Source: Candidatus Eiseniibacteriota bacterium (GTDB lineage: Bacteria; Eisenbacteria; RBG-16-71-46). From it: a stretch of 64,000 nt of DNA. Position numbers and translations under genes: made by a program. Under the pieces are notes generated by a model. The model saw only the letters and a program-made list of their open reading frames with translations. It had not been told where the DNA came from and searched no databases. The DNA is taken from NCBI GenBank assembly GCA_963707915.1, contig OY970178.1:1728001-1792000 (forward strand), read 5' to 3'. Shown here piece by piece: positions 46,585-64,000 of the stretch; the stretch's first letter is position 1; each line of letters opens with the position of its first letter.

Positions 46585-46611
46585 TCAAGTCGAACCGATG
46601 CTTGCCGATAC
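46585..46611 (+). promoter_or_regulatory. Sigma28 (FliA)-like promoter for the hybrid kinase and GspE-REC genes
   Basis: TCAAG-N14-GCCGATAC. Confidence 0.65.
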
Positions 46612-46685
46612 CCCTTCCAGAGGTGCTGTCCCCGGGCCTGGCAGGCCGCCTTTCTCGTTTCCATCGATTCCCGACACAGGACGGT

Positions 46686-49406
46686 ATGACCCTTCGCGGT
46701 CCGTTCGCTCGCGTGCGCGCCTGGCGTCCCAGCCTGCGGCTCGTCGACCCTCCGTGGGTCGCGGGGCCGGCCAGCATGGATCCGTCCGTGGGAGTGTCCG
46801 CCGCGTGGCGGAGCCTCGCCCGGCGCGGCCGGATCGGCGCTCCGCTCTACGCCCCGCTCTGCCTGGTCACCGCCGCCACGACCGGGATGCTCGCGACCCA
46901 CCTGACCCTCGTGGTCGGCTTCACGGCCGCGCTGGCCCTGGCCGGCGCCTGGAAGGTCCGGCTCGGCCGGATGGTCGAGCACCCGCACGACGCGATTCCG
47001 GCCGCGTGGCGCTGGGCGTTCACCGGTGCCACGATGGCGCAGGCCCTGCTCTGGGGCGGCTTCGCCGCGTTCGTCCTCGGGTACGACCGGTCGGGCGGTC
47101 ACGGGCTGATCGCCTGGCTCCCCACCATCGGGTTGTGCGCGAGCGCGATGACCTCGATGGCCGCCAGCCCGGTGATCTTCCGGCTGTTCCTGGCGTGCGC
47201 GCTGGGCCCGCCGCTGGTAACCGTGCTGGCCCCGGGCACGCAGCTGGGCCTCGGCTTCGGCGCGATGATCGTGCTCTTCATCGGCTTCATCGTGCTCGAG
47301 GGGAACCACCAGGGCCGGTCGTTCCGGCGGGCGATGATCAAGAACTTCCTGCTCGAGCAGCACGCCGCCGACCTCAAGGAGGCGCACCGCAGCGCCGAGC
47401 AGGCGCGCCGCGACGCCGAGGACGCGAACCGCCTCAAGTCCGAGTTCATCGCCAACGTGAGCCACGAGATCCGCACGCCGATGAACGGCGTGATCGGGAT
47501 GACCAGCCTGCTGCTCGACACCGCGCTGAACCCCGAGCAGCGCTCGCACGCCCTCGTCATCCGCAGCAGCGCCGACTCCCTGCTGGGCATCATCAACGAG
47601 ATCCTCGACTACTCGAAGCTCGGGGCCGGGCACGTGAACATCGAGGTCACGGACTTCGACGTGCGCGAGACGATGGACGAGGCCGCCGACCTGCTCGCGG
47701 CCCAGGCCCACGTCAAGGGCCTCGGCTTCGCGTGCCGCGTCCCGCCCGGCAGCCCGACGCAGCTGCGCGGCGACCCGAGCCGCATCCGCCAGGTCCTGGT
47801 GAACCTGATCGGCAACGCCATCAAGTTCACCGACACGGGCGAGGTGGTCATCGCGGTGCAGCCGGTGGCGCAGGAGACCGGCGCGGTCACGCTCCGGTTC
47901 ACCGTGCGCGACACCGGCATCGGGATCCCGCCGGAGCGCCAGGCCGCCGTCTTCGAGAGCTTCATCCAGGCCGACGGGAGTACGACGCGCCGGTACGGCG
48001 GCACCGGTCTCGGGCTCACCATCTCGCGCCAGCTCGTCGAGCTGATGGGCGGACGCATCGGGGTCGAGAGCGAGCCCGGGCGGGGCAGCACGTTCTGGTT
48101 CGAGCTGACGCTCGAGCGGACGGCCGCCTCCAGCCAGCCGGCCGCGGCGGACCACGACGGCCTGGCGGGACTGCCGGTCCTGGTGGTCTGCGCGCGCGCG
48201 ACCCAGCGGGAGATCATGGCGGAGACGCTCGCGTCCTGGGGCTGCCGGCCGATCGAGGCCTCGTCCTGCGAGGCGGGGTTGAGCATCCTGCGCGACAGCC
48301 GGGACGGGGACTCCGTCCGCCTCGTCCTGCTCGACCCGGGCGCGCGCGGGCTCGAGGGCGGGCACGCCCTCTCCGCGATCCGCTCCGACCGGCGGTTCAC
48401 CGCGCTCCCGATCGTCCTGCTGCTTCCCATCGGGACGTCGGGCGGCGACGAGGTCGCGCGGAGCCGCCAGTTCGCCGCCGTGCTTCCCGCGCCGGTGCGG
48501 CAGTCGCGGCTGCTCGAGGCGGTGCGGGCCGCGGTCGGCGTGGGCGCGCCCGCCACCGGCCCTCGCGCGGGGTCCGCGGGCGAGAATCCGCGGTCCCGGT
48601 TCCTCGGCTGCCGCGCGCTGCTGGCGGAGGACAACCAGGTCAACCAGCGCGTCGCGCTCGGCATGCTGGAGCGGCTGGGCGTGCGGGCGGACGCGGTCGC
48701 CAACGGCACCGAGGCGCTCGCCGCCCTCGACCTGGTGAACTACGACCTGGTGCTGATGGACGTGCAGATGCCGGAGATGGACGGCTTCGAGGCCACCGCC
48801 GTCATCCGCGAACGCGAGCGCGGCGGCGACCGGCGGCTCCCGATCATCGCCCTGACCGCCCACGTCATGCAGGACTACCGCGAGCGCTGCCTCGCCGCCG
48901 GGATGGACGACCACCTGCCGAAGCCGATCGAGCCGCGGCGGCTCGAGGAGGTCCTGCTGCGCTGGGCCCCCGAGCGGTCGGCGCGCGCGACTCCGCGGCC
49001 CGCGACCGCCGCGCCCGCCGAGGCGCCCGCCCCGTCGGAGGACACGGCGGAGGGCGAGTTCCCGGATCTCGACCTGGAGCGTCTCCAGTCCCTGACCGAT
49101 GGCGAGCCCGCACTGGAGCAGGAGCTGCTGACCCTGTTCGTCGAGAGCGCCCGCGAGACGCTGGCGGAACTGCGGGCCGCCCTCGAGGCCGGCGACGCCC
49201 GGCTCCTGAGCGCGAGCGCCCACGCCCTCAAGGGCAGCAGCCGCACCGTCGGGGCCGTCGAGCTCGGCGAGGTGGCCTGCGAGCTGGAACGACTGGGTGA
49301 CACCTCCGATTTCGCATCCGCATACGGAGCGCTCCTGAGCGCGGACGCAGCGTTCGAGCGAGTGGCGGCGACCATCAACGCGCGGCACCTCAAGCAGGCC
49401 GCCTGA
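46686..49406 (+). CDS. Membrane hybrid histidine kinase, paralog of 13823..16567
   Basis: [10 protein letters not shown] shared with the paralog; [32 protein letters not shown]. Start chosen at ATG 46686 downstream of the promoter. Confidence 0.9.
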
Positions 49407-49419
49407 AAGCGAGCACCCG

Positions 49420-51660
49420 ATGAACCCGACCCGCAACGACCTGGCGAGCACGAACGCGGCCCCGAATGGACACTGGCTGTCCGACGTCGTGACCCGGCAG
49501 CGGCTGGCCCCGCCCGGCGCCCTGCAGCTCCTGCCCGGAGACGACCTCGAGGCCTGCTGGGCCGCGGCGGCGCGCGCGTCCGGGATCAGCCAGGACGAGC
49601 TCGCGATCCACGTCGCGACGCACTTCGGCCTCGCCGCGGCGTCGCTCGCGTCCGCGGACCCGCGGACCGTGCGCCTGCTGCCGGAGCCGCTGATGCGGCG
49701 CCACCACGTGTTTCCGCTGCGGGAGGACGATCGCGAGCTGGTGGTCGCGGTCGCGGACCCCACGAACATGTCGGTCGAGGACGACGTGGCCTTCTCGTCG
49801 GACCGCAGGCCGGTGCTCGAGATCGCGCCCCCCCTGGCGATCCTCGAGGCCATCCGCAGCCTGATGGCGCCGGCCGATGGCATGGCGATGGACGTCGGCA
49901 ACGGGGCCGAGGCGGCGGTCGAGCTCCTGGAAGAGGCCTCCGTCGAGGTCGTGGACGCGCAGGAGGCCGAGTTCGCGCCGGTCATCAAGCTCACCAACCT
50001 GATGCTGCGGTCGGCGGTGGATCGGCGCGCGAGCGACGTGCACGTCGAGATCGTCGGGCGCGAGGGCCTGGTGCGCTTCCGCGTGGACGGCGTGCTGCAC
50101 AACTACATGCGGATGCCCCTCCCGGCGCTCAACCGCGTGCTCTCGCGCATCAAGATCATGGGCAAGCTCGACATCGCGGACCGCCTCCACCCGCAGGACG
50201 GGCGCGCCAGCATCAGCGTCAACGGCTCGGTCTGCGACCTGCGCATCTCGACCGTGCCCACGCGTCTCACCGAGAAAGCCGTGATCCGGCTCCTGCCGCA
50301 GGGCACCGCACCGAGACTTCCCGACCTCGGCCTGCCGGAGGACCAACTGCTCGCGATCCGCGCGCTGGTCTCCAACCGCAACGGCATCGTGCTGGTCACG
50401 GGCCCGACCGGCTCCGGCAAGACCACCACGCTCTACGCGGCGATCCGGGAGCTCTCGACCGGCCAGCAGAACATCATGACGGTCGAGGACCCGATCGAGT
50501 ACGACCTGCCGGGGATCACCCAGGTCCAGGTGGAGCCCAGGCAGGGCTTGACCTTCGCCTCCGCCCTGCGCAGCCTGCTTCGGCAGGACCCCGACGTCAT
50601 CCTGGTCGGCGAGATCCGCGACCTCGAGACCGCCGAGGTGGCGGTGCAGGCGAGCATGACCGGGCACCTGGTGCTGGCCACGCTGCACACCAACGACGCC
50701 CCGGCGGCGATCCAGCGGCTGCTCGACCTCGGGCTGGACCGCTCGAGCGTCGCCGCGACGCTGCGCGGTGTCATCTCCCAGCGGCTGGTGCGGCGCGTCT
50801 GCCCGGCCTGCGCCCAGCCGGTGGACGGCGCCCTGAACGCCGGCGAGCGACGCCTGGCGGAGCTGAGCGGCGCGGAACCGGTGGTGCGGGCCGTCGGGTG
50901 CCAGAGCTGCACGAAGTCCGGCTACCGTGGACGGATGCCGGTCGTGGAAGTGCTCACGATGACGTCCCCGCTGACCGCGCTGGTCTCCCACGGGGCCACC
51001 CTCGACGAGCTGCAACTCGGCGCCCGCAAGGCCGGCCTGGTCACCCTGTGCGAGGCGGCCCTGGTCCGCGCACGCGCGGGCGAGACCACGCTCGAGGAGA
51101 TCGACCGGGTCATCGGGTTCCCGCCGGCGCCGGAGCGGCCCGCCGCGGGGCCGGCACCGGCCGCGGCGCCCGCCCCCGCCGCGCTCGCGGCGGTGCCGCC
51201 CCCGCCTGCCGTTCCGGCCGTCCGCGGGGCCGTGGCGACGCCGGCGGTGGCCGCCACGGCCGCCGCGATGCCGGTCGTCGCGGTGCGGCCGCTGATCCTG
51301 ATGGTGGACGACGACCTCGTGAACCGGCGGGTCGCGCGCGTGTCCATGGAGAAGAGCGGCTTCCGCGTGGAGGAGAGCGTGGACGGCGTGGAGGCGGTCG
51401 AGCGCCTGAAGCGGGAGCCGCCGCCCGAACTCGTCGTCCTCGACCTGCAGATGCCGAGGATGGGCGGAGCCGATGTCCTGGACTGGATGCGGAAGACCCC
51501 CGCCACGGCCTCGATCCCGGTGATCGTCTTCACCGCGATGGGGGCCGACAACGAGGCCCAGCTGATGGACGCCGGCGCCGACGACTACGTGCGCAAACCG
51601 CTCGACCCGCCGCGCTTCATCTCGCGGATCAAGGCCGCGCTCAGGCGCCGGACCTACTAG
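49420..51660 (+). CDS. GspE/PilB-family secretion ATPase with a C-terminal receiver domain
   Basis: ASDVH, PQDGR, GPTGSGKTTT, TVEDPIE, RQDPDVILVGEIRD, TLHTN, CPAC/CQSC, Pro/Ala linker, REC (VDDD, LDLQMP, KP). Confidence 0.92.
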   Translation: MNPTRNDLASTNAAPNGHWLSDVVTRQRLAPPGALQLLPGDDLEACWAAAARASGISQDELAIHVATHFGLAAASLASADPRTVRLLPEPLMRRHHVFPLREDDRELVVAVADPTNMSVEDDVAFSSDRRPVLEIAPPLAILEAIRSLMAPADGMAMDVGNGAEAAVELLEEASVEVVDAQEAEFAPVIKLTNLMLRSAVDRRASDVHVEIVGREGLVRFRVDGVLHNYMRMPLPALNRVLSRIKIMGKLDIADRLHPQDGRASISVNGSVCDLRISTVPTRLTEKAVIRLLPQGTAPRLPDLGLPEDQLLAIRALVSNRNGIVLVTGPTGSGKTTTLYAAIRELSTGQQNIMTVEDPIEYDLPGITQVQVEPRQGLTFASALRSLLRQDPDVILVGEIRDLETAEVAVQASMTGHLVLATLHTNDAPAAIQRLLDLGLDRSSVAATLRGVISQRLVRRVCPACAQPVDGALNAGERRLAELSGAEPVVRAVGCQSCTKSGYRGRMPVVEVLTMTSPLTALVSHGATLDELQLGARKAGLVTLCEAALVRARAGETTLEEIDRVIGFPPAPERPAAGPAPAAAPAPAALAAVPPPPAVPAVRGAVATPAVAATAAAMPVVAVRPLILMVDDDLVNRRVARVSMEKSGFRVEESVDGVEAVERLKREPPPELVVLDLQMPRMGGADVLDWMRKTPATASIPVIVFTAMGADNEAQLMDAGADDYVRKPLDPPRFISRIKAALRRRTY

Positions 51661-54979: not shown

Positions 54980-56027
54980 CTACGCCCCGAACCAGCGCGC
55001 CACCAGGCTACGGGCGAGCGACAGGTCGTCCGTGCCCTTCACGATCGCGCGGCCGTCGGCGAAGAGCGTGAGCTCGTAGGGTGGCACGCGCAGCCGCACG
55101 ACGAACCCGTTCGCCAGCACCTCGCCGGCCCCACCCGCGGCCCGCGTGCCACGCAGGCGCGCGGCGACCGCGGCGAGGTCGGGCACCGCGCCGCCCGCCG
55201 GCCTCACCAGCACCGCGTCGCGGCCGCACAGGACCTCGGCCGGCTCCGCGCCGCGCTCCAGGAACTCGAAGCGCCGCTCGCCGCAGCAGGGGCAGCGCGG
55301 GTCCCGCGGCGGCAGCTCGACGTGCTGGAAGCGCAGGTCCCAGACGTCCGCGCTCACCATCACCGCAGGCTCGGGGGCCTCGCGGGTGACGAGCCAGCGC
55401 AGCGCCTGTGCCACCTCGAGCGCGGCGATCAGGTGCGCGACGGGGCCGAGGACGCCGACGGTGTCGCAGGTCGGAGTCGAGCCCGGCGGGGGCAACTCGG
55501 GCTGGATGCAGCGGAAGCACGGGGTGCTGCCCGGCACGATCAGCGTGCTCACCCCGTAGCTGCCGACGCAGGCCCCGTGCACCCAGGGCAGGCCCGCGTG
55601 CACGCAGGCGTCGTTGAGCAGGTAGCGGCCCTCGAAGTTGTCGAAGCCGTCCACCACCAGGTCCACGCCCTCGATCAGCCCGGCGAGATTGCCGGCGTGC
55701 AGGTCGGTCGACCACGGGCTCGACCGCGACTTCGGAGTTGATCGCGGCGAGGTGGCGCGCGGCGGCCACGGCCTTGGGGATGCAGTCGCGCGTGTCGGCC
55801 TCGTCGAAGAGCGCCTGCCGCTGGAGGTTCGTGAGGTCGACGACGTCGCGGTCCACGATCCGCAGGAAGCCGACGCCCCCGCGCGCCAGCAGGTTCGCGG
55901 CCTCGGCGCCGAGCCCGCCGCAGCCCAGCAGCAGCACGCGCGCGGCGCGCAGCCGCGCCTGCCCCGCCACCCCGATCGGCGCGTGGAGGATCTGCCGCGA
56001 GTAGCGGTCGTCGGCCGGCGGGCGCAT
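54980..56027 (-). CDS. moeB: ThiF/MoeB family sulfur-carrier adenylyltransferase, +1 frameshift near 55709
   Basis: RYSRQI, GCGGLG, DRDVVDLTNLQRQ in one frame; DGFDNF, PCFRC, TCDTVGVLG, CPCC in another. Removing one base gives EPVV-TDLHAGNL. Confidence 0.88.
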
Positions 56028-56142
56028 CGGACGCTCCTCTCCTGTCATGCCGACATGTTGTCCGGGTCGTCGCCGAGAATCAAGCCGCCCCGGGAGTCCG
56101 GGGCGGCCAGGGCGTTGCCGGGAACACCCCCCGAGCCGGGGA

Positions 56143-57921
56143 CTACGGACACCCGGCCGGTCTCGTGAAGTGCACCGTGATCACGTTCTGGGGGTTCACG
56201 GCCAGCCGGGTGGCGGGGTCGATGCCCTGCACGCAGCGCCCCCGACCCGGGATGGCCTCGCAGTCCACGCAATCGCAGATCTCGATGCTGACCCGGATGT
56301 CGCCCGAGGCGAAGGGGTTCCCAGCCTCTCCACCCGGCTTGAAGGTGACCTCGCGAGAAGCCACGCCGTATGCCCCGACCGGGTACGGATCGCTGCCCGG
56401 CACGAGGTAGGTCCACGAGGTGTCGCGGCCGGCCAGGTTCTTCCCGTAGAGCGTGATGGTGAAGCGCAGCGTCGTCTTCGACACCGGGCCGCCGGCCGTC
56501 GTGTTCGCCGCGTTGGGATCGCAGGGATCGGCGTCCATTCCCAGCAGACGGAAGGTCCAGGTGCAGCTGCCCGACGGATCCGGGAACTCCTGCCCCGCCA
56601 CGGGCACGAAGCTGGCGTTGCTCCGGACCAGCGCCGGCGCCTTGTCCACGTAGAAGGTGATGACCTTGCGCCGCGCGAGCCGTTCGGCTTCCGTGCCGCC
56701 GCCGGCGTCCACGAGGTCGGCGAGGGTGATGGCGTCCCTGATCCGGACGTCCAGGCCGCCGTCGGCGTCCTGCGCGCGCGCCAGGGCGTAGGCCTTCCCC
56801 GCCGCGTACATGCGCCAGTACCCCGCGAGACGCGGCGCACGGAACACCGACGTGGGCTCGAAGACCGGGTAGAGACCGGTCTGGGCCGGGATCATCTTGA
56901 GGCCACCGGGCGTGAGGCGCTCGGCGACGAGCGACCGGAAGCCGACGGGCGAGCCCATGAGGCCCAGCGTCTGGAGTGCGGCGTAGCGCTCCGGGTCCGC
57001 GGCGAAACCGGCCGGCAGCGCCGGGTCCGTGGGATCCACCCGGGGCACGTACTTCGAGTCCTTGTCATAGCCGCCGTTCACGAGCACGACCCACGAGTTC
57101 TGGTGGACCGTGTCCCCTTCCGAGCGGGCGAAGATGCGGTCGCCGTAGATCTCGTAGAACGTCCCGCGGCGGTCGTCTCCGCGAAGCGGCTGCCGCATCG
57201 AGGGCAGGTAGCGGAACGAGTCCGGTCCGAAGTACGCGCGCCCGTCCGGCGGCCAGGCCGTGGCGGTGGTGAAGCGCCCCCAGTCCTTCACGTCCACCGC
57301 GCGAGCCCGCTCGCCGTCGCTCGAGAGCGGCCACAGCCCGGGGATCGGGCCCGCCCACCAGGTGTCGGGGGCGAAGTTCGCGAGGCAGATCAGGGTTTTC
57401 GTGCCTCCGCCCGCCTGCTCCGGCACGGTCACGTGGATGAGGTTGAACCCGGGGACGAGCGTCTGGGTGTCCGGCGGGGCCGGGCGGTCACCTCCCGACT
57501 CCGCGAGCGTGGACACGTCCACGGCTCGAGTCGGGTCGAGATCGGCCTCGAAGGTCGAATCGGCGACCCCGTGCCGCGCACGGAGGGACCGCCACGACCA
57601 GTAGGCAAGGCTGAAGGCCGGCACCGTGTCCCGGGGAGCCACCCCCGGCACGAACTCCTGGGTCAGCCGGAAGACCCGGCGGGGATGGGCGACGGGACGG
57701 GAGTCACGGCCCAGAGTGACGATGGTGCCGACCGCCCGGGCATCGAGGACCCACTTGCGCCCCGACGAGTCGGTACACGAGACACCGGCACCGCCGGTCT
57801 CCGATGCAGGCGGCTGGCTGACGGCCCGGATGGCGGTGGGACGGAGGGGCTTGGTGCACCCCGCGCACCAGGCGGCGACCACGGTCAACAGAACGAGGGG
57901 GATCGTGGGACTCGTACGCAT
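56143..57921 (-). CDS. Hypothetical lipoprotein
   Basis: GGAGG RBS, MRTSPTIPLVLLTVVAAWCAGC lipobox-like N-terminus, long open frame, C-terminal CDCVDC...C. No family recognised. Confidence 0.7.
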   Translation of the reverse strand: MRTSPTIPLVLLTVVAAWCAGCTKPLRPTAIRAVSQPPASETGGAGVSCTDSSGRKWVLDARAVGTIVTLGRDSRPVAHPRRVFRLTQEFVPGVAPRDTVPAFSLAYWSWRSLRARHGVADSTFEADLDPTRAVDVSTLAESGGDRPAPPDTQTLVPGFNLIHVTVPEQAGGGTKTLICLANFAPDTWWAGPIPGLWPLSSDGERARAVDVKDWGRFTTATAWPPDGRAYFGPDSFRYLPSMRQPLRGDDRRGTFYEIYGDRIFARSEGDTVHQNSWVVLVNGGYDKDSKYVPRVDPTDPALPAGFAADPERYAALQTLGLMGSPVGFRSLVAERLTPGGLKMIPAQTGLYPVFEPTSVFRAPRLAGYWRMYAAGKAYALARAQDADGGLDVRIRDAITLADLVDAGGGTEAERLARRKVITFYVDKAPALVRSNASFVPVAGQEFPDPSGSCTWTFRLLGMDADPCDPNAANTTAGGPVSKTTLRFTITLYGKNLAGRDTSWTYLVPGSDPYPVGAYGVASREVTFKPGGEAGNPFASGDIRVSIEICDCVDCEAIPGRGRCVQGIDPATRLAVNPQNVITVHFTRPAGCP

Positions 57922-58021
57922 GACCACCTCCAAGCCCCCGGTCGCTGCGTCATTGGTACGGCTCGACGCTAGCACTCGACATCCGGATGTCAATCGGGAA
58001 GTGGCCCGCGGAACGAGGTAT

Positions 58022-58222
58022 CTACCCCCCGCCGATCAGGTGGATGACCTCCACGACGTCGCCGTCGTGGAGCACGGTGGTGGGGACCTGCTCGCGCTTC
58101 ACCACCCGCTGGTTCACCAGGATGACCCGCAGCGGGAACGTGTAGGTCTTCTCCCGCAGCAGGGCCTCGACGGTGAGGCCCTCGCGGTGGGGATGCGGGT
58201 CGCCGTTGACGGTGAGCGCCAT
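58022..58222 (-). CDS. thiS: ThiS/MoaD ubiquitin-like sulfur carrier
   Basis: 66 aa, TVNG..., DGDVVEVIHLIGGG with C-terminal GG. Confidence 0.88.
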   Translation of the reverse strand: MALTVNGDPHPHREGLTVEALLREKTYTFPLRVILVNQRVVKREQVPTTVLHDGDVVEVIHLIGGG

Positions 58223-58224
58223 CG

Positions 58225-60210
58225 TCACTCCGTGACGCCGTGCGCCTTCAGCAGCTCCACGACCCCTTCGACCCGGTCGATGCCGAGGGCGCGGACCTTG
58301 GCGAGCGTCGGGATCCCGTCGGGGGTCCAGCCGCGCCGCTTGTAGACCGCGTCGAGCAGCTTCTGGTAGCGGTCCTCGCGGTACGCGCGCAGCGCCGCGC
58401 GGCGCTGATCGAGCGAGAGCGGCGCGGGGTCCACGCCGGCCTCCTCCTTCAACTGCTTGTCGTAGCGCTCCTGGCGCGACTCGTACTCGGCGGCGGTGAC
58501 CGGGCCCTGCGCGCGATACGGGATCGCGTCGTGCGCGCGGCGGCCGAAGCCCATCTTGAGGTTGAAGATGCGCTGGAAGTTGTAGACCCGCTCGCTCTGC
58601 AGGATGAGGTCCTCGGGCCGGACCTCCTTGCCCGTCATCCCGGCCACGAACTCGCAGTAGCCCTGCACGTGGCGCGGCACCTTGGCCGGCGCGCCGGACT
58701 CGGCGTTGTCCTCGGGCTCGACGTCGTTCCACAGCAGCTTGCACAGCCCGTTCAGGCCGAACCACGTGCGCCACATCGGGAAGTAGTGCAGCGCCTCGGC
58801 CTTGTCCTCGAAGCTCGGGATCTGCTTGTTCACCATGTCCATGAAGATGAGCCAGGCCTCGTCGTGCTGCGGGCCCTTCAGCGCGATGCCGTAGCCGCCC
58901 TGCTGGGCGAGCGACTCCTTGCAGATGTAGCCGGAGTACTCGAGCCCCTTGGCCTCCATGCCGACGTCCTGCAGGAACGCGGGGTCGGCGCCGAAGCGCT
59001 CGGCGAAGATCCGCTTCATCCGCCGCACGCCCTGGCCGGCGAGCAGGCCGAAGCCCTCGCCTCGCGCCATCTGGTGCAGCACCTCGAGCGTGCCGTCGAT
59101 GCTGCCCGGCGAGAGGTCGAGGCCGCCGGTGTGCTCGCGCTGCAGCACGCCGGCCTCGAAGCACTCCATCACGAACGCCATCAGCGTGCCGAAGGAGATG
59201 GTGTCCAGCCCGTAGTGGTCGCAGTAGTAGTTGATCTCGATGATGGCCCAGGGCTCGAAGATGCCGAGGTTGCTGCCGGCGCACGAGACCGTCTCGTACT
59301 CGGGCCCGTCCACCAGCACGGACTTGCCCCGGTCCGGCCCGGTGCGCAGCACGTGACCGTCCACCGCCTTGGCGCAGGCCATGTCGCAGCCCAGGGCGCA
59401 GCCGTCGGCCACGCCCTGCGTGAACAGCGCCTTGAACTTGTCCGAGGCGATGCGCGGCGTGTCGACGTGCTTCCCGTAGCGGTAGTTGTGGACCGGCAGG
59501 AGGTCGTAGTCGTCCATGATCTCGGTCAGGTGCGCGGTGCCGATCTCGCGCATGTGGCACTGGTGCTTGTCCAGCACCAGCACCTCGCGGGTGAGCTCGG
59601 CGCCGGCGCGGCGGATGCGGTCGGCGTCCACCGGGTGGTTCGGGTCCTCGGTGAAGCGGATCGCCCCGGTCGGGCACACGCTGGCGCAGGCCATGCAGCC
59701 CACGCAGGCCGACGACGCCTCGCCGTAGGGCATCGCCACCCGGCGCGACTCGCCGCGCCCCTCGAAGGCCAGCACGTGGTGCCAGACGCCCTCGTCGCAG
59801 AGGCGCACGCACAGGCCGCACAGGATGCAGGCGTTCGGGCTCTCGTTGCGCTGCGGGTGCGCGAAGCGGGGCGCGGCGACGCCGGCCTCGCGCGCCATCT
59901 CCTGCACCACCTTCACCTGGGGCCAGCGCGCCAGCATCATCTCGAGCACCAGCCGGCGGGTGCGCAGGGCGCGCTCGCTGCGGGTGAAGACCTCGACCGG
60001 CTTCTGCAGCGGGTAGTTGCAGGCGGTGACGATGCGCTTGCGGCGCCCCTCGTCCACCTCGACGCTGCAGACGCGGCAGACCCCGTAGGCTTCGACCAGC
60101 GGGCTGTGGCACAGCGCCGGGATCTCCACGCCGGCCTGCTTCGCGGCCGCGAGGATGGTGGTGCCCGGCGCCACCTCGGTCTTCCTGCCGTCGATCGTGA
60201 CCTGGATCAT
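58225..60210 (-). CDS. Fusion of a NuoG/HydA-N-like Fe-S module with the C-terminal domains of an aldehyde:ferredoxin oxidoreductase
   Basis: IPALC..GVCRVCSVE..TAC ([2Fe-2S]), CILCGLCVRLC and CVGCMACASVCP (2x[4Fe-4S]); then AOR motifs GTAHL, LPVHN, CALGCDMAC, GPEYET, CDHYGLDTIS, GPQH, RGWTPDGIPT. Alternative start at 60234. Confidence 0.88.
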   Translation of the reverse strand: MIQVTIDGRKTEVAPGTTILAAAKQAGVEIPALCHSPLVEAYGVCRVCSVEVDEGRRKRIVTACNYPLQKPVEVFTRSERALRTRRLVLEMMLARWPQVKVVQEMAREAGVAAPRFAHPQRNESPNACILCGLCVRLCDEGVWHHVLAFEGRGESRRVAMPYGEASSACVGCMACASVCPTGAIRFTEDPNHPVDADRIRRAGAELTREVLVLDKHQCHMREIGTAHLTEIMDDYDLLPVHNYRYGKHVDTPRIASDKFKALFTQGVADGCALGCDMACAKAVDGHVLRTGPDRGKSVLVDGPEYETVSCAGSNLGIFEPWAIIEINYYCDHYGLDTISFGTLMAFVMECFEAGVLQREHTGGLDLSPGSIDGTLEVLHQMARGEGFGLLAGQGVRRMKRIFAERFGADPAFLQDVGMEAKGLEYSGYICKESLAQQGGYGIALKGPQHDEAWLIFMDMVNKQIPSFEDKAEALHYFPMWRTWFGLNGLCKLLWNDVEPEDNAESGAPAKVPRHVQGYCEFVAGMTGKEVRPEDLILQSERVYNFQRIFNLKMGFGRRAHDAIPYRAQGPVTAAEYESRQERYDKQLKEEAGVDPAPLSLDQRRAALRAYREDRYQKLLDAVYKRRGWTPDGIPTLAKVRALGIDRVEGVVELLKAHGVTE

Positions 60211-60230
60211 GGCGGGGTTCCTTTCGCCGC

Positions 60231-62114
60231 TCATCGGACCAGCACCGCGCCGTCCTTGCAGACGTCCATGCAGGTGCCGCACTGGATGCACTTGTCCTGC
60301 GCGATGGTGTGGAGCTCGCGGCGCACGCCGGTGATCGCGTCGGTCGGACAGACCTTCACGCACGCGGTGCAACCGGTGCAGTCCTCGGTGATGGTGTAGC
60401 GGATGAGCGCCTTGCAGACCCCCGCCGGGCAGCGCCGCTCGCGGATGTGGGCCTCGTACTCGGCGCGGAAGTAGCGCAGGGTCGAGAGCACCGGGTTCGC
60501 CGCGGTCTGCCCCAGGCCGCAGAGCGAGCCGTCGGCCAGCACCGCGCCGAGGTCCTCGAGCAGCGCCAGGTCCTGCTCGCGGCCCTCCCCCGCCGTGATG
60601 CGCGTGAGCACCCCGCGCAGGTTCACCAGGCCCTCGCGGCACGGCGTGCACTTGCCGCACGACTCGTCGCACAGGAAGTCCACGAAGTAGCGCGCCACGT
60701 CCACCATGCAGGTGCGGTCGTCCATCACGATCATGCCGCCCGAGCCCATCATCGAGCCGGCCTCGACCAGCGTGTCGAAGTCCACCGCCAGGTCGAGCTT
60801 CGACTCGGGCAGGCAGCCGCCCGAGGGACCGCCGGTCTGCACCGCCTTGAACGCCCGACCGTCCGGGATGCCGCCGCCGATGTCGAAGACGATCTCGCGC
60901 AGCGTGATGCCCATCGGCACCTCGACCAGCCCCGAGTTGCGGATGTTCCCGACCAGCGAGAACACCTTGGTGCCGCTGCTGCCGCCCCAGGGCGACTTCG
61001 AGACGTCGCCGGTGCCGATCGCGGCGAACCACTCCGGCCCGTTCAGGACGATCTGCGGGACGTTGGCCCAGGTCTCGACGTTGTTGAGCACCGTCGGCAG
61101 GTCGCGGAAGCCGTGCTCCACGGTGTGCACGTACTTCGCCCGCGGCTCGCCTGCGCGGCCCGCCATCGAGGCCATCAGCGCGGTGGACTCGCCGCAGACG
61201 AACGCGCCGGCGCCGCGGTGGACGGTGATGTCGAACGCCATCCCCGCGCCGAGCACGTCCGCGCCCAGCAGCCCCCAATCGCGCGCCTGCGCCAGCGCCC
61301 GGGTCAGGCGCTTCAGCGCCAGCGGGTACTCGTGGCGGATGTAGACGAAGCCCTCGACCGCGCCGATCGCCCGCGCCCCGATCAGCATGCCCTCGATCAC
61401 CGCGTGCGGGTCGGCCTCGACGATGCTGCGGTCCATGAAGGCGCCCGGGTCGCCCTCGTCCCCGTTGCAGACCACGAAGGGGCGCACGCCCTGCGCGCGC
61501 GCCGCGGCGAGGCAGCTCTGCCACTTCACGCCGGCCGGGAACCCGCCGCCGCCGCGCCCGCGCAGCCCCGAGCGGACCAGCCGCTGCACCAGCGCGTCGC
61601 CGTCGAGCCCTTCGCGCAGCACCTTCGCCAGCGCCTGGTAGGCGCCGGTGCGGATCGCGTCGGCGATGTCCTCGGGGTCGATCTTGCCGCGGTTGCGCAG
61701 CGCGATGCACTGCTGCTTGGCGAAGAACTCGATGTCCTTCTCGAGCGGGACCGGCTTGCCGCCGTCCGCCGCGTGGAAGAGGAAGGCCTCGAGCGGCTGC
61801 TGCTTCACGAAGTGCGACTCGATCAGCTCGGGCACGGCCTCGGGCTTGAGGCGCTCGTAGAACACGCCCTCGGGCTGGACCACGCAGATCGGCCCGTGGG
61901 CGCAGAAGCCGTTGCACCCGGTGGCCACCACCTGGATCTCGTCCTGCAGGCCGCGGCGCTCCAGCTCCCGGCGGAAGGCGTCGCGCAGCGGCAGCGACTT
62001 GGCCGAGACGCAGCCGGTGCCGGCGCAGACCATGAGCATGGACTTCCAGCCCGCGTGCCGGCGCTGCGCCTCGTGCGCCAGCGCGCCGAGGTTCTCGAGG
62101 GTCGCCCTAGGCAT
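60231..62114 (-). CDS. NuoF/HydB (BfuB)-like FMN/NAD-binding subunit
   Basis: CAGTGC..GCNGFC, LRGRGGGGFP, NGDEGDPGAFMDR, GAGAFVCGE, NNVET, GGPSGGC, ESCGKCTPCREG, SLCGLG, H..CPAGVC, two C-terminal [4Fe-4S] motifs. Confidence 0.93.
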   Translation of the reverse strand: MPRATLENLGALAHEAQRRHAGWKSMLMVCAGTGCVSAKSLPLRDAFRRELERRGLQDEIQVVATGCNGFCAHGPICVVQPEGVFYERLKPEAVPELIESHFVKQQPLEAFLFHAADGGKPVPLEKDIEFFAKQQCIALRNRGKIDPEDIADAIRTGAYQALAKVLREGLDGDALVQRLVRSGLRGRGGGGFPAGVKWQSCLAAARAQGVRPFVVCNGDEGDPGAFMDRSIVEADPHAVIEGMLIGARAIGAVEGFVYIRHEYPLALKRLTRALAQARDWGLLGADVLGAGMAFDITVHRGAGAFVCGESTALMASMAGRAGEPRAKYVHTVEHGFRDLPTVLNNVETWANVPQIVLNGPEWFAAIGTGDVSKSPWGGSSGTKVFSLVGNIRNSGLVEVPMGITLREIVFDIGGGIPDGRAFKAVQTGGPSGGCLPESKLDLAVDFDTLVEAGSMMGSGGMIVMDDRTCMVDVARYFVDFLCDESCGKCTPCREGLVNLRGVLTRITAGEGREQDLALLEDLGAVLADGSLCGLGQTAANPVLSTLRYFRAEYEAHIRERRCPAGVCKALIRYTITEDCTGCTACVKVCPTDAITGVRRELHTIAQDKCIQCGTCMDVCKDGAVLVR

Positions 62115-62658
62115 CGGCGTCCTCCGCCGGGCCCTTCGCCCCCTGCGCGGCCACCGAGCCGGTGTTGCGGTGCCGGCGCATCAGCTTGCCGACCTTGGAG
62201 GAGTCCACCCCGCCGACCAGCTCGGCCCCGAAGGTCACCACCGGCGCCAGCCCGCAGCAGCCCAGGCAGCGCACGCCCTCGAGGCTGTACTTCTGGTCCG
62301 CGGTGGTCTCGCCCGGCTTCACCCCCAGCTCGCGGCCGAAGGCGTCGAGCACCCGCGCCGCGCCCTGCACGTGGCAGGCGGTGCCGGTGCAGACCTGGAT
62401 CGTGGTCTCGCCGCGCGGCACCAGCGAGAACGCCTTGAAGAACGTGGCGATGTGGTAGAGCCGCGCCAGGTCCGCCTGGGTGCGCTCGGCGATGCGCTCG
62501 AGCGCGGCCTTCGGCAGGTGGCGGTAGTGCTTCTGGACGTCCTGCAGCATCTCGACCGCGAACTCGGGGTCCGCGCCCCAGCGGTCCACGATCGAGTCCA
62601 CCGCGAGCACGTCCGGGACGAGCACGGACCGCCCGGCGCCGTTCCCTCCCGCGCTCAT
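62107..62658 (-). CDS. NuoE/HydC (BfuC)-like [2Fe-2S] subunit
   Basis: LQDVQ, ATFFKAFSL, VCTGTACHV, CLGCCGLAP. ATG overlaps the stop of the upstream gene. Confidence 0.92.
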   Translation of the reverse strand: MSAGGNGAGRSVLVPDVLAVDSIVDRWGADPEFAVEMLQDVQKHYRHLPKAALERIAERTQADLARLYHIATFFKAFSLVPRGETTIQVCTGTACHVQGAARVLDAFGRELGVKPGETTADQKYSLEGVRCLGCCGLAPVVTFGAELVGGVDSSKVGKLMRRHRNTGSVAAQGAKGPAEDADA

Positions 62659-63437
62659 GGCGCCTCCACCGACATCGCCCAGCGCGGGCGGTTCTTCGCG
62701 CTGCGCGCCACGATCGCCTTGAGGTTCTTGTTCATCATCACGCTGCCCAGCCCGCCGCGGCCGGCCTGCTTGAGGCGCGGTTCGTTGCGCTTCCAGTCGA
62801 AGAACGAGACGTTGATGCAGCCGATCAGCGTGTGGAGCGCGCCGCGGCCCGCCGAGACCACCGAGATGTCCTGCAGCTCGGCCGGCGTGCGCGCGTACAT
62901 GGCGTGCAACTGGCCGGCGACGTCGTAGGAGTCGAGCGCCTCGTGCGGGGCGGTCTCGAGCGTGACGCGGTGCGCGTCGCCGTCGATGACCAGCAGCACG
63001 AACTCCGCGGCCTTGCCGCGCACCTCGAGGGCGTCGAAGCCGGCGAACTTGAGCAGCGGTCCGAAGTGCCCGCCGACGTTGCAGTCCATCACCGAGCTGG
63101 TGAGCGGTGAGATGCCGGTGACCAGGCACTTGCCCGAGCCCGAGAAGTAGGGCGTGCCGGCCAGCGGGCCCGCCGAGAAGTACAGCCCGTTGCGCGGGTC
63201 GTCCCAGGCGATCGGGCCGGGGACCGACTTCCACATCAGGTAGAGGTCGAAGCCCTTGCCGCCCGTGAAGGTGTCCTTCATGTAGGGCGTCACCGGGCGG
63301 ACCTCGATGGTGTTGGCCCCGAGGTCCACGTGCAACGTGCGGTTCGCGTAGCCGCGCTCGACCTCGCCGGGCGGGTAGTCGAGCGCGGCCAGGACACGAT
63401 GGGCCGCCTTCATCTCGTTCAGCGCGATGGGATTCAT
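62655..63437 (-). CDS. Stand-alone N-terminal domain of an aldehyde:ferredoxin oxidoreductase (tungstopterin family)
   Basis: GYANRTLHVDL, FTGGKG, GPLAG, GSGK, SPLT, NVGGHFG, KFAGFD, AGRGGLGSVM, KNLKAIV. GGAG RBS; clean stop in an ATGA overlap. Confidence 0.9.
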   Translation of the reverse strand: MNPIALNEMKAAHRVLAALDYPPGEVERGYANRTLHVDLGANTIEVRPVTPYMKDTFTGGKGFDLYLMWKSVPGPIAWDDPRNGLYFSAGPLAGTPYFSGSGKCLVTGISPLTSSVMDCNVGGHFGPLLKFAGFDALEVRGKAAEFVLLVIDGDAHRVTLETAPHEALDSYDVAGQLHAMYARTPAELQDISVVSAGRGALHTLIGCINVSFFDWKRNEPRLKQAGRGGLGSVMMNKNLKAIVARSAKNRPRWAMSVEAP

Positions 63438-63676
63438 GAGGTCTCCGGGCCGTCCGGGGTGGGACCGGCGCAAGCGGCCCGAGTATGCCACAACGTCGAC
63501 GGAGCTTCACGGGGCGGGGCGGATCGGACCGGCGGCGCCGCCGAACGATATTCGGCGGTCCCTCCCCGCACGCGCCGGATCGGCCGAGCCCGCTCCCGGC
63601 GCGGCCCGGCCGCGGGATGCCCGGGTGCGGCCGGGTGCGATAAGATGCCGCGCAGCCAACCACGGGAGGGACCCGG

Positions 63677-64000
63677 ATGTTCTGCACGCGCTTCAAGAAC
63701 GAGCCCATCTGCGACTACTCCGTCGAGGCCAACGTCCGGGCGGCCGAGCGGGCCATCGCCGCGCTGGAGAAGTCGCTCGGCGGCTACCACCCCGCCGTCA
63801 TCGGCGGCCGCGAGGTCGAGACCGAGAAGAGCATCGTCTCGCTCTGCCCGGCGCAGCCCGACCGCGTGGTCGGCCGGGCGGCCAGCTGCACGCGCACCCA
63901 CGTGGACGAGGCCGTCGCCGGGGCGCGGAAGGCGTTCGCCTCCTGGGCGCGCACCGACCCCGAGACCCGCGCCGAGACGCTGATGAGGCTCGCGGCGCTC
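63677..64000 (+). CDS. pruA: 1-pyrroline-5-carboxylate (glutamate semialdehyde) dehydrogenase, 5' part (runs off window)
   Basis: Not in the ORF track. GGAGG RBS, MFCTRFKNEPICDYS..VIGG..SLCPAQPDRVVG..AVAGARKAFASWA..RAETL matches the PruA/RocA N-terminus. Confidence 0.8.
   Translation, partial: MFCTRFKNEPICDYSVEANVRAAERAIAALEKSLGGYHPAVIGGREVETEKSIVSLCPAQPDRVVGRAASCTRTHVDEAVAGARKAFASWARTDPETRAETLMRLAAL

Follow-up and report, generated by a model that had tools for sequence, protein, structure and literature searches.

A split aldehyde oxidoreductase-type catalytic unit encoded around a Bfu-type electron module in Candidatus Eiseniibacteriota

Contig OY970178.1 of a Candidatus Eiseniibacteriota bacterium, whose genome is this single contig of 3.62 Mb (completeness estimate 94.8%), encodes the catalytic chain of an aldehyde oxidoreductase (AOR) of the tungsten type on two separate polypeptides. 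We studied this unit in a window of 64,000 nucleotides, to which all positions refer unless another locus is named. Five abutting genes with family support occupy 58022-63437 on the minus strand and encode, in gene order, an AFOR_N protein, a BfuC-like subunit, a BfuB-like subunit, a fusion of an Fe-S arm to AFOR_C, and ThiS. An earlier note on this DNA had described a split AOR around a NuoE/F/G-type module with thiS, and profile searches recovered all five genes at the coordinates it gave. The unit represents a real, conserved and apparently undescribed layout of a known enzyme type (Wor-Bfu) and not a new kind of enzyme. Judged from its sequence, the operon probably encodes a four-subunit, WorS-less, cytoplasmic AOR coupled to NAD+ and ferredoxin.

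The first gene (62655..63437, minus strand) encodes a protein of 260 amino acids (aa) that has AFOR_N (PF02730, 7e-48) as its only domain, corresponds to catalytic domain 1 of AORs, and ends in ...KNLKAIVARSAKNRPRWAMSVEAP; this is the N-domain protein as the earlier note had presented it. Its stop overlaps by 4 nt with the start of the BfuC/NuoE-like gene (62107..62658, minus strand; 183 aa; PF01257, 9e-42), whose product is a thioredoxin-like [2Fe-2S] subunit of the NuoE/HoxE type with WorC as its best solved relative. The third gene (60231..62114, minus strand) encodes a BfuB/HydB-like FMN, NAD(H) and Fe-S subunit of 627 aa, identified by its Pfam domains and by full-length matches to HydB, BfuB and WorB. 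The fourth (58225..60234, minus strand) encodes the fusion protein of 669 aa, in which Fer2_4 and two Fer4 domains (residues 8-197) precede AFOR_C (residues 222-652, 1e-90). Residues 1-198 (59641..60234, minus strand; PF13510 and Fer4) constitute a WorA-like Fe-S arm with one [2Fe-2S] and two [4Fe-4S] predicted sites and no A3 site, while residues 199-669 (58225..59640, minus strand; PF01314, 1e-90) comprise AOR domains 2 and 3 with predicted [4Fe-4S] and pterin sites. The unit is completed by a ThiS-like small protein of the 'WorX' type (58022..58222, minus strand; 66 aa; PF02597, 1e-10; TIGR01683, 8e-14). The first and third junctions in gene order are overlaps of 4 nt each and the second is one of 8 nt, while 2 nt separate the fusion gene from thiS. 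AFOR_N and AFOR_C are therefore found on two polypeptides whose genes lie 2.4 kb apart, and the abutting five-gene unit contains no gene for a polyferredoxin (WorS). The G+C content of the region is about 70-74%, such that many spurious frames are open in it. A promoter and terminator consensus scan of 57500-64000 returned no site of either kind.

The split layout is genuine, being neither a misassembly nor a broken gene. In a survey of contigs from one genome per species, 581 stretches encoded a relative, and the best 80 of these were examined. The order N-domain, C, B, A::AFOR_C, ThiS is identical in five of the 80 loci (L001, L003, L004, L007, and L013), and a thiS gene lies 3' of the fusion gene in L001-L004, L007, and L013. 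In 70 of the 80 loci both AOR parts share one reading frame, and in four only the C part is present, at a contig edge. Three loci, L014, L042 and L048, had been flagged as split by the script used to call open reading frames (ORFs); on inspection their parts share one frame, and they were counted as intact. At the level of the genus, a full-length fusion was found in four of seven congeners, with a partial copy at a contig end in a fifth. The same order and fusion, which the earlier note had suggested looking for in other genomes, thus exist outside the window. A variant was seen in L002 (positions 1-2362, from a metagenome-assembled genome (MAG) of Myxococcota), where the A::AFOR_C fusion is immediately preceded by the end of an N-domain gene, without BfuC and BfuB between them; the contig begins within the N-domain gene, and this variant order falls inside the split clade.

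The protein surveys give the same picture. Among the best 120 related protein clusters (60-94% identity to the fusion), 116 combine Fer2_4 with AFOR_C, the remaining four are shorter pieces, and AFOR_N occurs in none. Conversely, with the AFOR_N protein as query and E<=1e-10, 567 proteins (143-455 aa) were retrieved, and 118 of the 120 listed among them carry AFOR_N only, mostly with a length of 257-260 aa. Three proteins show further layouts of the family: in P0240 (424 aa) AFOR_N is fused with a [2Fe-2S] domain of the NuoE type, in P0215 (418 aa) with TPR repeats, and P0245 (862 aa) matches the AFOR_C part in two stretches. When proteins were clustered at 50%, only two full-length fused representatives (P0241 and P0242) ranked above the intact forms, a result that fits a compact family. 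Labelled records of the split family come from Myxococcota/'Deltaproteobacteria', Fermentibacteria/Aegiribacteria, and Cloacimonetes, and close relatives are present in sediment and wetland metagenomes. Within the taxonomic family of the window, a search of 17 genomes of other genera did not find the full-length fusion. A genome of the same order and another family (G033; C52 and C32) carries a fusion copy that is 87% identical, a higher value than for two of the four congeners with a full-length copy; together with the patchy occurrence, this copy suggests horizontal transfer.

Contigs from other public runs bridge every junction, which speaks against the misassembly that the earlier note had named as a possible objection, and with the order being kept in independent genomes its statement that the break is no frameshift holds as well. 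Bridging pieces include contigs from an RNA library (X17, record 12 covering 58843-60659 and record 15 covering 61428-62756) and short DNA contigs of X1 (59582-59770, 60099-60255, and 62435-62780). These contigs derive from relatives and show that the joined layout exists elsewhere, which is distinct from transcription as a single RNA; window parts without a listed contig carry no evidential meaning.

Aligned to an intact homologue (L015), the two halves tile its sequence without gap or overlap: residues 5-252 of the N-domain protein correspond to residues 14-261 of L015, and residues 199-665 of the fusion to residues 263-728. The break is therefore a single point, located where a linker joins AOR domains 1 and 2, and the linker sequence at this point is the same in intact AORs of the same clade. 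The free N-domain protein retains the conserved motifs GGKGF, NVGGHFGP, and KQAGRGG, and its matches in the PDB are the N domains of BamB, WorL, and PfAOR (about 1e-20). A profile search of the genome found it to be the only AFOR_N match and the fusion the only AFOR_C match at the above completeness, which leaves no intact AOR from which the missing domain could come.

In a tree of the C part (83 rows), the seven split forms cluster together with an SH-aLRT of 96, and this cluster lies within intact AORs from Chloroflexota and Bipolaricaulota. For the N halves, a tree in which the split rows were constrained together reached a log-likelihood (lnL) 37 higher than the free tree and a p-AU of 0.94, so that one clade is not rejected. 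Two origins of the N halves, as the free tree would have it, were not accepted for the same reason. The concern that the halves might stem from different AOR clades is thereby answered, and by these sequence comparisons the two halves share a common ancestry. The split may have originated by literal insertion of a cassette into an AOR gene, as the earlier note had proposed; other arrangements of the genes and other fusions occur as well.

The residues expected at an AOR active site are retained across the break. In all 17 fused proteins compared, C279, C283, C287, C498, D339, G342, D344, and the triplet G496-L497-C498 are invariant and align with PfAOR. We take the four cysteines to be the [4Fe-4S] ligands and DxxGLD and GLC to be the pterin motifs, by analogy with the PfAOR structure. 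The four cluster cysteines and two pterin DxxGL(C/D) motifs of the AOR family are thus all present. T233, E314, Y436, and H457 of the fusion, likewise invariant in 17 of 17 proteins, align with T243, E313, Y427, and H448 of PfAOR, which is the set of residues (Thr243, Glu313, Tyr427, and His448 in PfAOR numbering) listed for aldehyde-oxidising tungsten oxidoreductases (WORs) in PMC13328260. By its residues, the protein would accordingly belong with the aldehyde oxidisers. The AFOR_C part has its best PDB match in 1aor (4e-23) and matches 9mqx_D at 1e-18 over part of its length, and an NCBIfam search with this part alone matched no family.

Docking of the two halves was modelled with the N-domain protein and fusion residues 199-669 in three runs and three controls. 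The predicted complexes reached interface scores (ipSAE) of 0.94, 0.94, and 0.95, with 0.00 for the best of three controls. They shared at least 86% of their contacts, with a partner pLDDT of at least 89. In the calibration of this score, which is only rough because custom alignments were used, 116 of 157 solved complexes attained the mark, as against two of 215 mismatched pairs. The modelled interface covers the stretch of Fe-S cysteines, both pterin motifs, and GGKGF and KQAGRGG of the N domain.

The electron module resembles Bfu-type enzymes in all three subunits. The arm is best matched by WorA (9mqx_A, 1e-36), its residues 10-199 aligning with WorA residues 5-190, and twelve cysteines are invariant in 17 of 17 proteins (C42, C53, C56, C72, C136, C139, C142, C146, C177, C180, C183, and C187). 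No cysteine lies between C72 and C136, which leaves no A3 site. The small subunit finds its best solved relative in WorC (9mqx_C, 9e-38). The flavoprotein is composed of an N-terminal 2Fe-2S domain, Complex1_51K (FMN/NADH), NADH_4Fe-4S, and two C-terminal Fer4 domains (Pfam), and matches HydB, NiFe-BfuB, and WorB over its full length (about 1e-210; the HydB alignment spans residues 24-624). Along this line, the subunits show the make-up of Bfu enzymes: a BfuB with N-terminal [2Fe-2S], FMN/NADH site, B1 cluster and two C-terminal [4Fe-4S], a BfuC with [2Fe-2S], and a BfuA with clusters A1 and A2, the latter two recognized by their domains and the WorC and WorA matches.

The earlier note had read the NuoF-like subunit as HydB-type from GAFMDR, GGPSG, and C-terminal Cys motifs. 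All of these occur in the translation, as do the published Bfu-specific motifs. The flavoprotein contains DEGDPGAFMDR (219-229), GAGAFVCGES (301-310), and the putative ligands of the B2/Zn site C469, H556, C562, and C567, so that the DPGAFMDR and GAGAF forms and the B2-site ligands are all present. Such motif forms occur in Bfu enzymes and are absent from the four non-bifurcating homologues aligned in Supplementary Figs 9-10 of PMC9304861, and the B2-site ligands (three Cys, one His) are conserved in all 1,558 Bfu sequences of that study; the signatures were matched by eye to the figure text. GESTALM of the flavoprotein fits the form GES[ST]ALM of all six rows of clade 45 in the same figure, the Bfu clade that holds Wor (PMC9304861). 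Among the split loci, L001 and L003 contain all four strict Bfu patterns, and L013, L004, and L007 each miss one or two.

From these features, the following path can be proposed. The AOR fold would be rebuilt around a bis-pterin cofactor from the separate N domain together with domains 2 and 3 of the fusion. An aldehyde would be oxidised at the tungsten (or molybdenum) bis-pterin site, and its electrons would pass to the AOR [4Fe-4S] cluster and from there, via the two [4Fe-4S] and the [2Fe-2S] clusters of the arm, to the BfuB/BfuC flavin core. The core would then reduce NAD+ and ferredoxin together, or the system might run in reverse. Since no WorS polyferredoxin is encoded, the fusion would replace the WorS 'nanowire' of WorABCSL. 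ThiS and ThiF would serve cofactor maturation, and the metal may be tungsten.

Regarding cofactor maturation, a ThiS-like WorX has been described in PMC13328260, and in L001, L086, L088, and L089 thiF lies directly 3' of thiS. The earlier note had placed a moeB gene 2 kb downstream. A ThiF/MoeB-family adenylyltransferase gene is indeed found there (54980..56048, minus strand), although it is frameshifted in this assembly: ThiF profile positions 1-99 match in one frame and 111-238 in another, and relative to the congener G004, where the gene is a single frame, there is one extra base near 55708. Between thiS and thiF lies an ORF of 616 aa (56143-57993, minus strand) with a lipoprotein-like N-terminus, which is absent at that place in G004 and had no Pfam or NCBIfam match. 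The genome contains two MoeA genes, one of them about 1.8 kb past the window end. Divergently upstream of the operon (window 63677-64000, plus strand; L082 278-5034) lie three genes, one for an L-glutamate gamma-semialdehyde dehydrogenase (699 bits, over cut-off) and two more for MoeA and for a sodium:dicarboxylate symporter. The dehydrogenase was considered as a clue to the substrate and rejected on account of its family and of its position, as none of 11 related loci that were checked showed this enzyme or MoeA next to the split operon. Elsewhere in the window (46602-51660, plus strand), a type II/IV secretion ATPase (T2SSE) with a response-regulator receiver domain at its C-terminus comes next after a hybrid histidine kinase, which contains receiver and Hpt domains.

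Several observations weigh against an NAD+- and ferredoxin-coupled AOR as proposed here. The search for tungstate/molybdate transporters did not find ModA (TIGR01256) and identified no TupA, returning only two PstS-family binding proteins. The frameshift in thiF could be an assembly error, or it could be a real defect that makes a pseudogene of it and would impair cofactor maturation. In the free N-domain tree (77 rows) the split rows appear in two groups. The RNA-library contigs stem from relatives (about 89-94% identity, four long listed pieces) and are no proof of transcription. As structures of intact AORs have been solved, the docking score may be memory of them, and that the halves dock in the model is a likeness and not a binding result. 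The AFOR_C part has no close relative among solved or NCBIfam-curated proteins that would point to a substrate. Finally, as far as the review PMC12096430 covers it, WOR1 has been shown only to distribute electrons to ferredoxin and NAD+, with no endergonic step, and strict bifurcation is unproven.

The last point leads to an unlikely alternative in which the same complex is assembled as a plain NAD+-linked AOR, functionally like AorABC, and the flavoprotein's C-terminal domain of the ferredoxin type, like its B2 site, is a structural leftover. The aldehyde/acid couple is low enough for direct reduction of both NAD+ and ferredoxin according to PMC9304861, NAD-linked AORs are known (Class III AorABC, PMC13328260), and the doubts raised for WOR1 in PMC12096430 would apply here too. 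However, the flavoprotein retains every Bfu-specific feature that the non-bifurcating homologues in Supplementary Figs 9-10 of PMC9304861 lack, and it matches bifurcating HydB and WorB along its full length, extra domains included. We regard it as improbable that the pterin site does not act on free aldehydes and instead serves another substrate or a reductive reaction, such as BamB-like reduction of benzoyl-CoA or a carboxylate reductase driven by NADH and reduced ferredoxin. The distance of the AFOR_C part from characterised AORs, seen in its modest best PDB match and in the lack of an NCBIfam family, would suit such a role, and so would its 58-70% identity to intact homologues across phyla, an unusual conservation that hints at one specific substrate; moreover, Class IV WORs include BamB (PMC13328260). 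Set against this, all four aldehyde-oxidiser residues are invariant, and one of the poorest-scoring PDB matches of the fusion is BamB (9e-8).

Very improbable, in our view, is that broken cofactor maturation has left this genome with a system in decay or without activity. The frame of thiF relative to the congener would agree with decay, as would the family-less gene between thiS and thiF, which has no counterpart there in G004, L001, L086, L088, and L089. Yet the five operon genes are open, no stop falls within either AFOR-domain match, the key residues are kept, and the single extra base may be an assembly error. An AOR that couples aldehyde oxidation to NAD+ and ferredoxin through a Bfu-type flavin core remains the reading we prefer.

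More tentatively, the unit may represent a further WOR class and the first 'Type 1' Wor-Bfu, nanowire-less and with a 1:1 stoichiometry. The cut at the boundary of domains 1 and 2 would let the BfuA arm be fused beside the AOR [4Fe-4S] cluster, and the freed N domain would be a separately assembling base under the bis-pterin, possibly turning the insertion of the cofactor or the closing of the active site into a step of its own that can be controlled. If this holds, those current WOR censuses that ask for both domains in one chain omit a lineage present in several bacterial phyla. PMC13328260 defines WorL as a chain with both AFOR_N (IPR013983) and AFOR_C (IPR001203), which here are distributed over two chains; this definition leaves split forms out by construction, and classifications built on it cannot see the split family. 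The word 'split' is absent from the main text of that paper, and a full-text literature search, with the supplementary tables of PMC13328260 that may list such sequences lying outside it, returned no published description of a split AOR. The question whether the architecture had already been characterised thus received a negative answer within this literature. Tungsten AORs and Bfu enzymes are both actively studied; they are known to be combined only in WorABCSL, by way of a polyferredoxin nanowire. The split layout seems to achieve the Wor-Bfu wiring by gene fusion and indicates that two polypeptides can together form a bis-pterin active site. Should the complex prove active, it would offer a simpler system of fixed stoichiometry in which to test how a bifurcating flavin core is supplied by a low-potential pterin site.

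The closest relatives of the catalytic halves are the intact AORs of the same clade from Chloroflexota, Bacteroidota, Cloacimonadota, and Bipolaricaulota (the 70 intact loci among the 80), with 41-57% identity in the N part and 58-68% in the C part. They differ from the split form in being single polypeptides of about 715-740 aa, and in 68 of the 70 loci the examined DNA holds no Bfu-type genes; neither the PDB nor NCBIfam contains a characterised member. Two loci from Bacillota MAGs, L015 (5245-13396) and L037 (1147-8063), encode an intact AOR of this clade followed by a BfuC::BfuB fusion (about 790 aa) and a long BfuA-like ORF (at least 725 aa in L037). In L015 the A-type protein has at least 1080 aa and contains MvhD, a second Fer2_4, and Pyr_redox_2 (Pfam), a different AOR-Bfu/Hdr-like pairing. 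As candidate intermediates with an intact AOR plus C-B-A, both loci were rejected, given the BfuC::BfuB fusion and the length of the A-type ORF, which mark a different system.

Among characterised enzymes, AorABC of Aromatoleum aromaticum (Class III WOR, PDB 8c0z) is likewise an AOR-family enzyme coupled to NAD+ via added subunits (PMC13328260). It differs, as described there, by its FAD subunit with a polyferredoxin nanowire, its intact catalytic subunit, and the lack of a NuoE/NuoF-type module. With the Type 1 Bfu enzymes (FeFe-HydABC, Nfn-Bfu and Fdh-Bfu, as well as F420-Bfu; PMC9304861) the unit shares the fusion of a third-substrate catalytic domain to the BfuA C-terminus, which in that type makes an extra electron-transfer subunit unnecessary (PMC9304861). 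In contrast to the unit described here, none of the Type 1 enzymes listed in the text of PMC9304861 is a Wor member or has a separately encoded piece of its catalytic domain; Wor is placed there in Type 2, clade 45, with 37 members from Synergistetes and Firmicutes.

WorABCSL of Acetomicrobium mobile (AmWOR1, Class IV WOR, Type 2 Wor-Bfu, PDB 9mqx; PMC12318220) is the described system that comes nearest in composition. It too pairs an AOR-family pterin unit with a BfuABC-type module. Among solved structures, the arm finds its best match in WorA and the small subunit in WorC, and WorB is in the top three for the flavoprotein. WorA, like the arm, is without cluster A3 (PMC12318220), and the operon includes the gene for the ThiS-like WorX (PMC13328260). 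The differences concern the catalytic moiety, to which the AOR part here is only distantly related (9mqx_D, 1e-18, partial length). Class IV WORs are described as WorLSABC, with five subunits including the WorS polyferredoxin and an intact WorL (PMC13328260), whereas the present unit encodes no polyferredoxin and has its catalytic chain cut at the boundary of domains 1 and 2. This is in good agreement with the statement of the earlier note that in WorABCSL the catalytic subunit is intact and separate from the HydABC-like module: according to PMC12318220, WorL is an intact chain apart from WorABC, joined to it through a 3:1 nanowire of WorS polyferredoxin. The end of WorA is formed there by a zinc finger together with a docking helix (PMC12318220), and it is in this very place that the fusion protein described here carries AOR domains 2 and 3.

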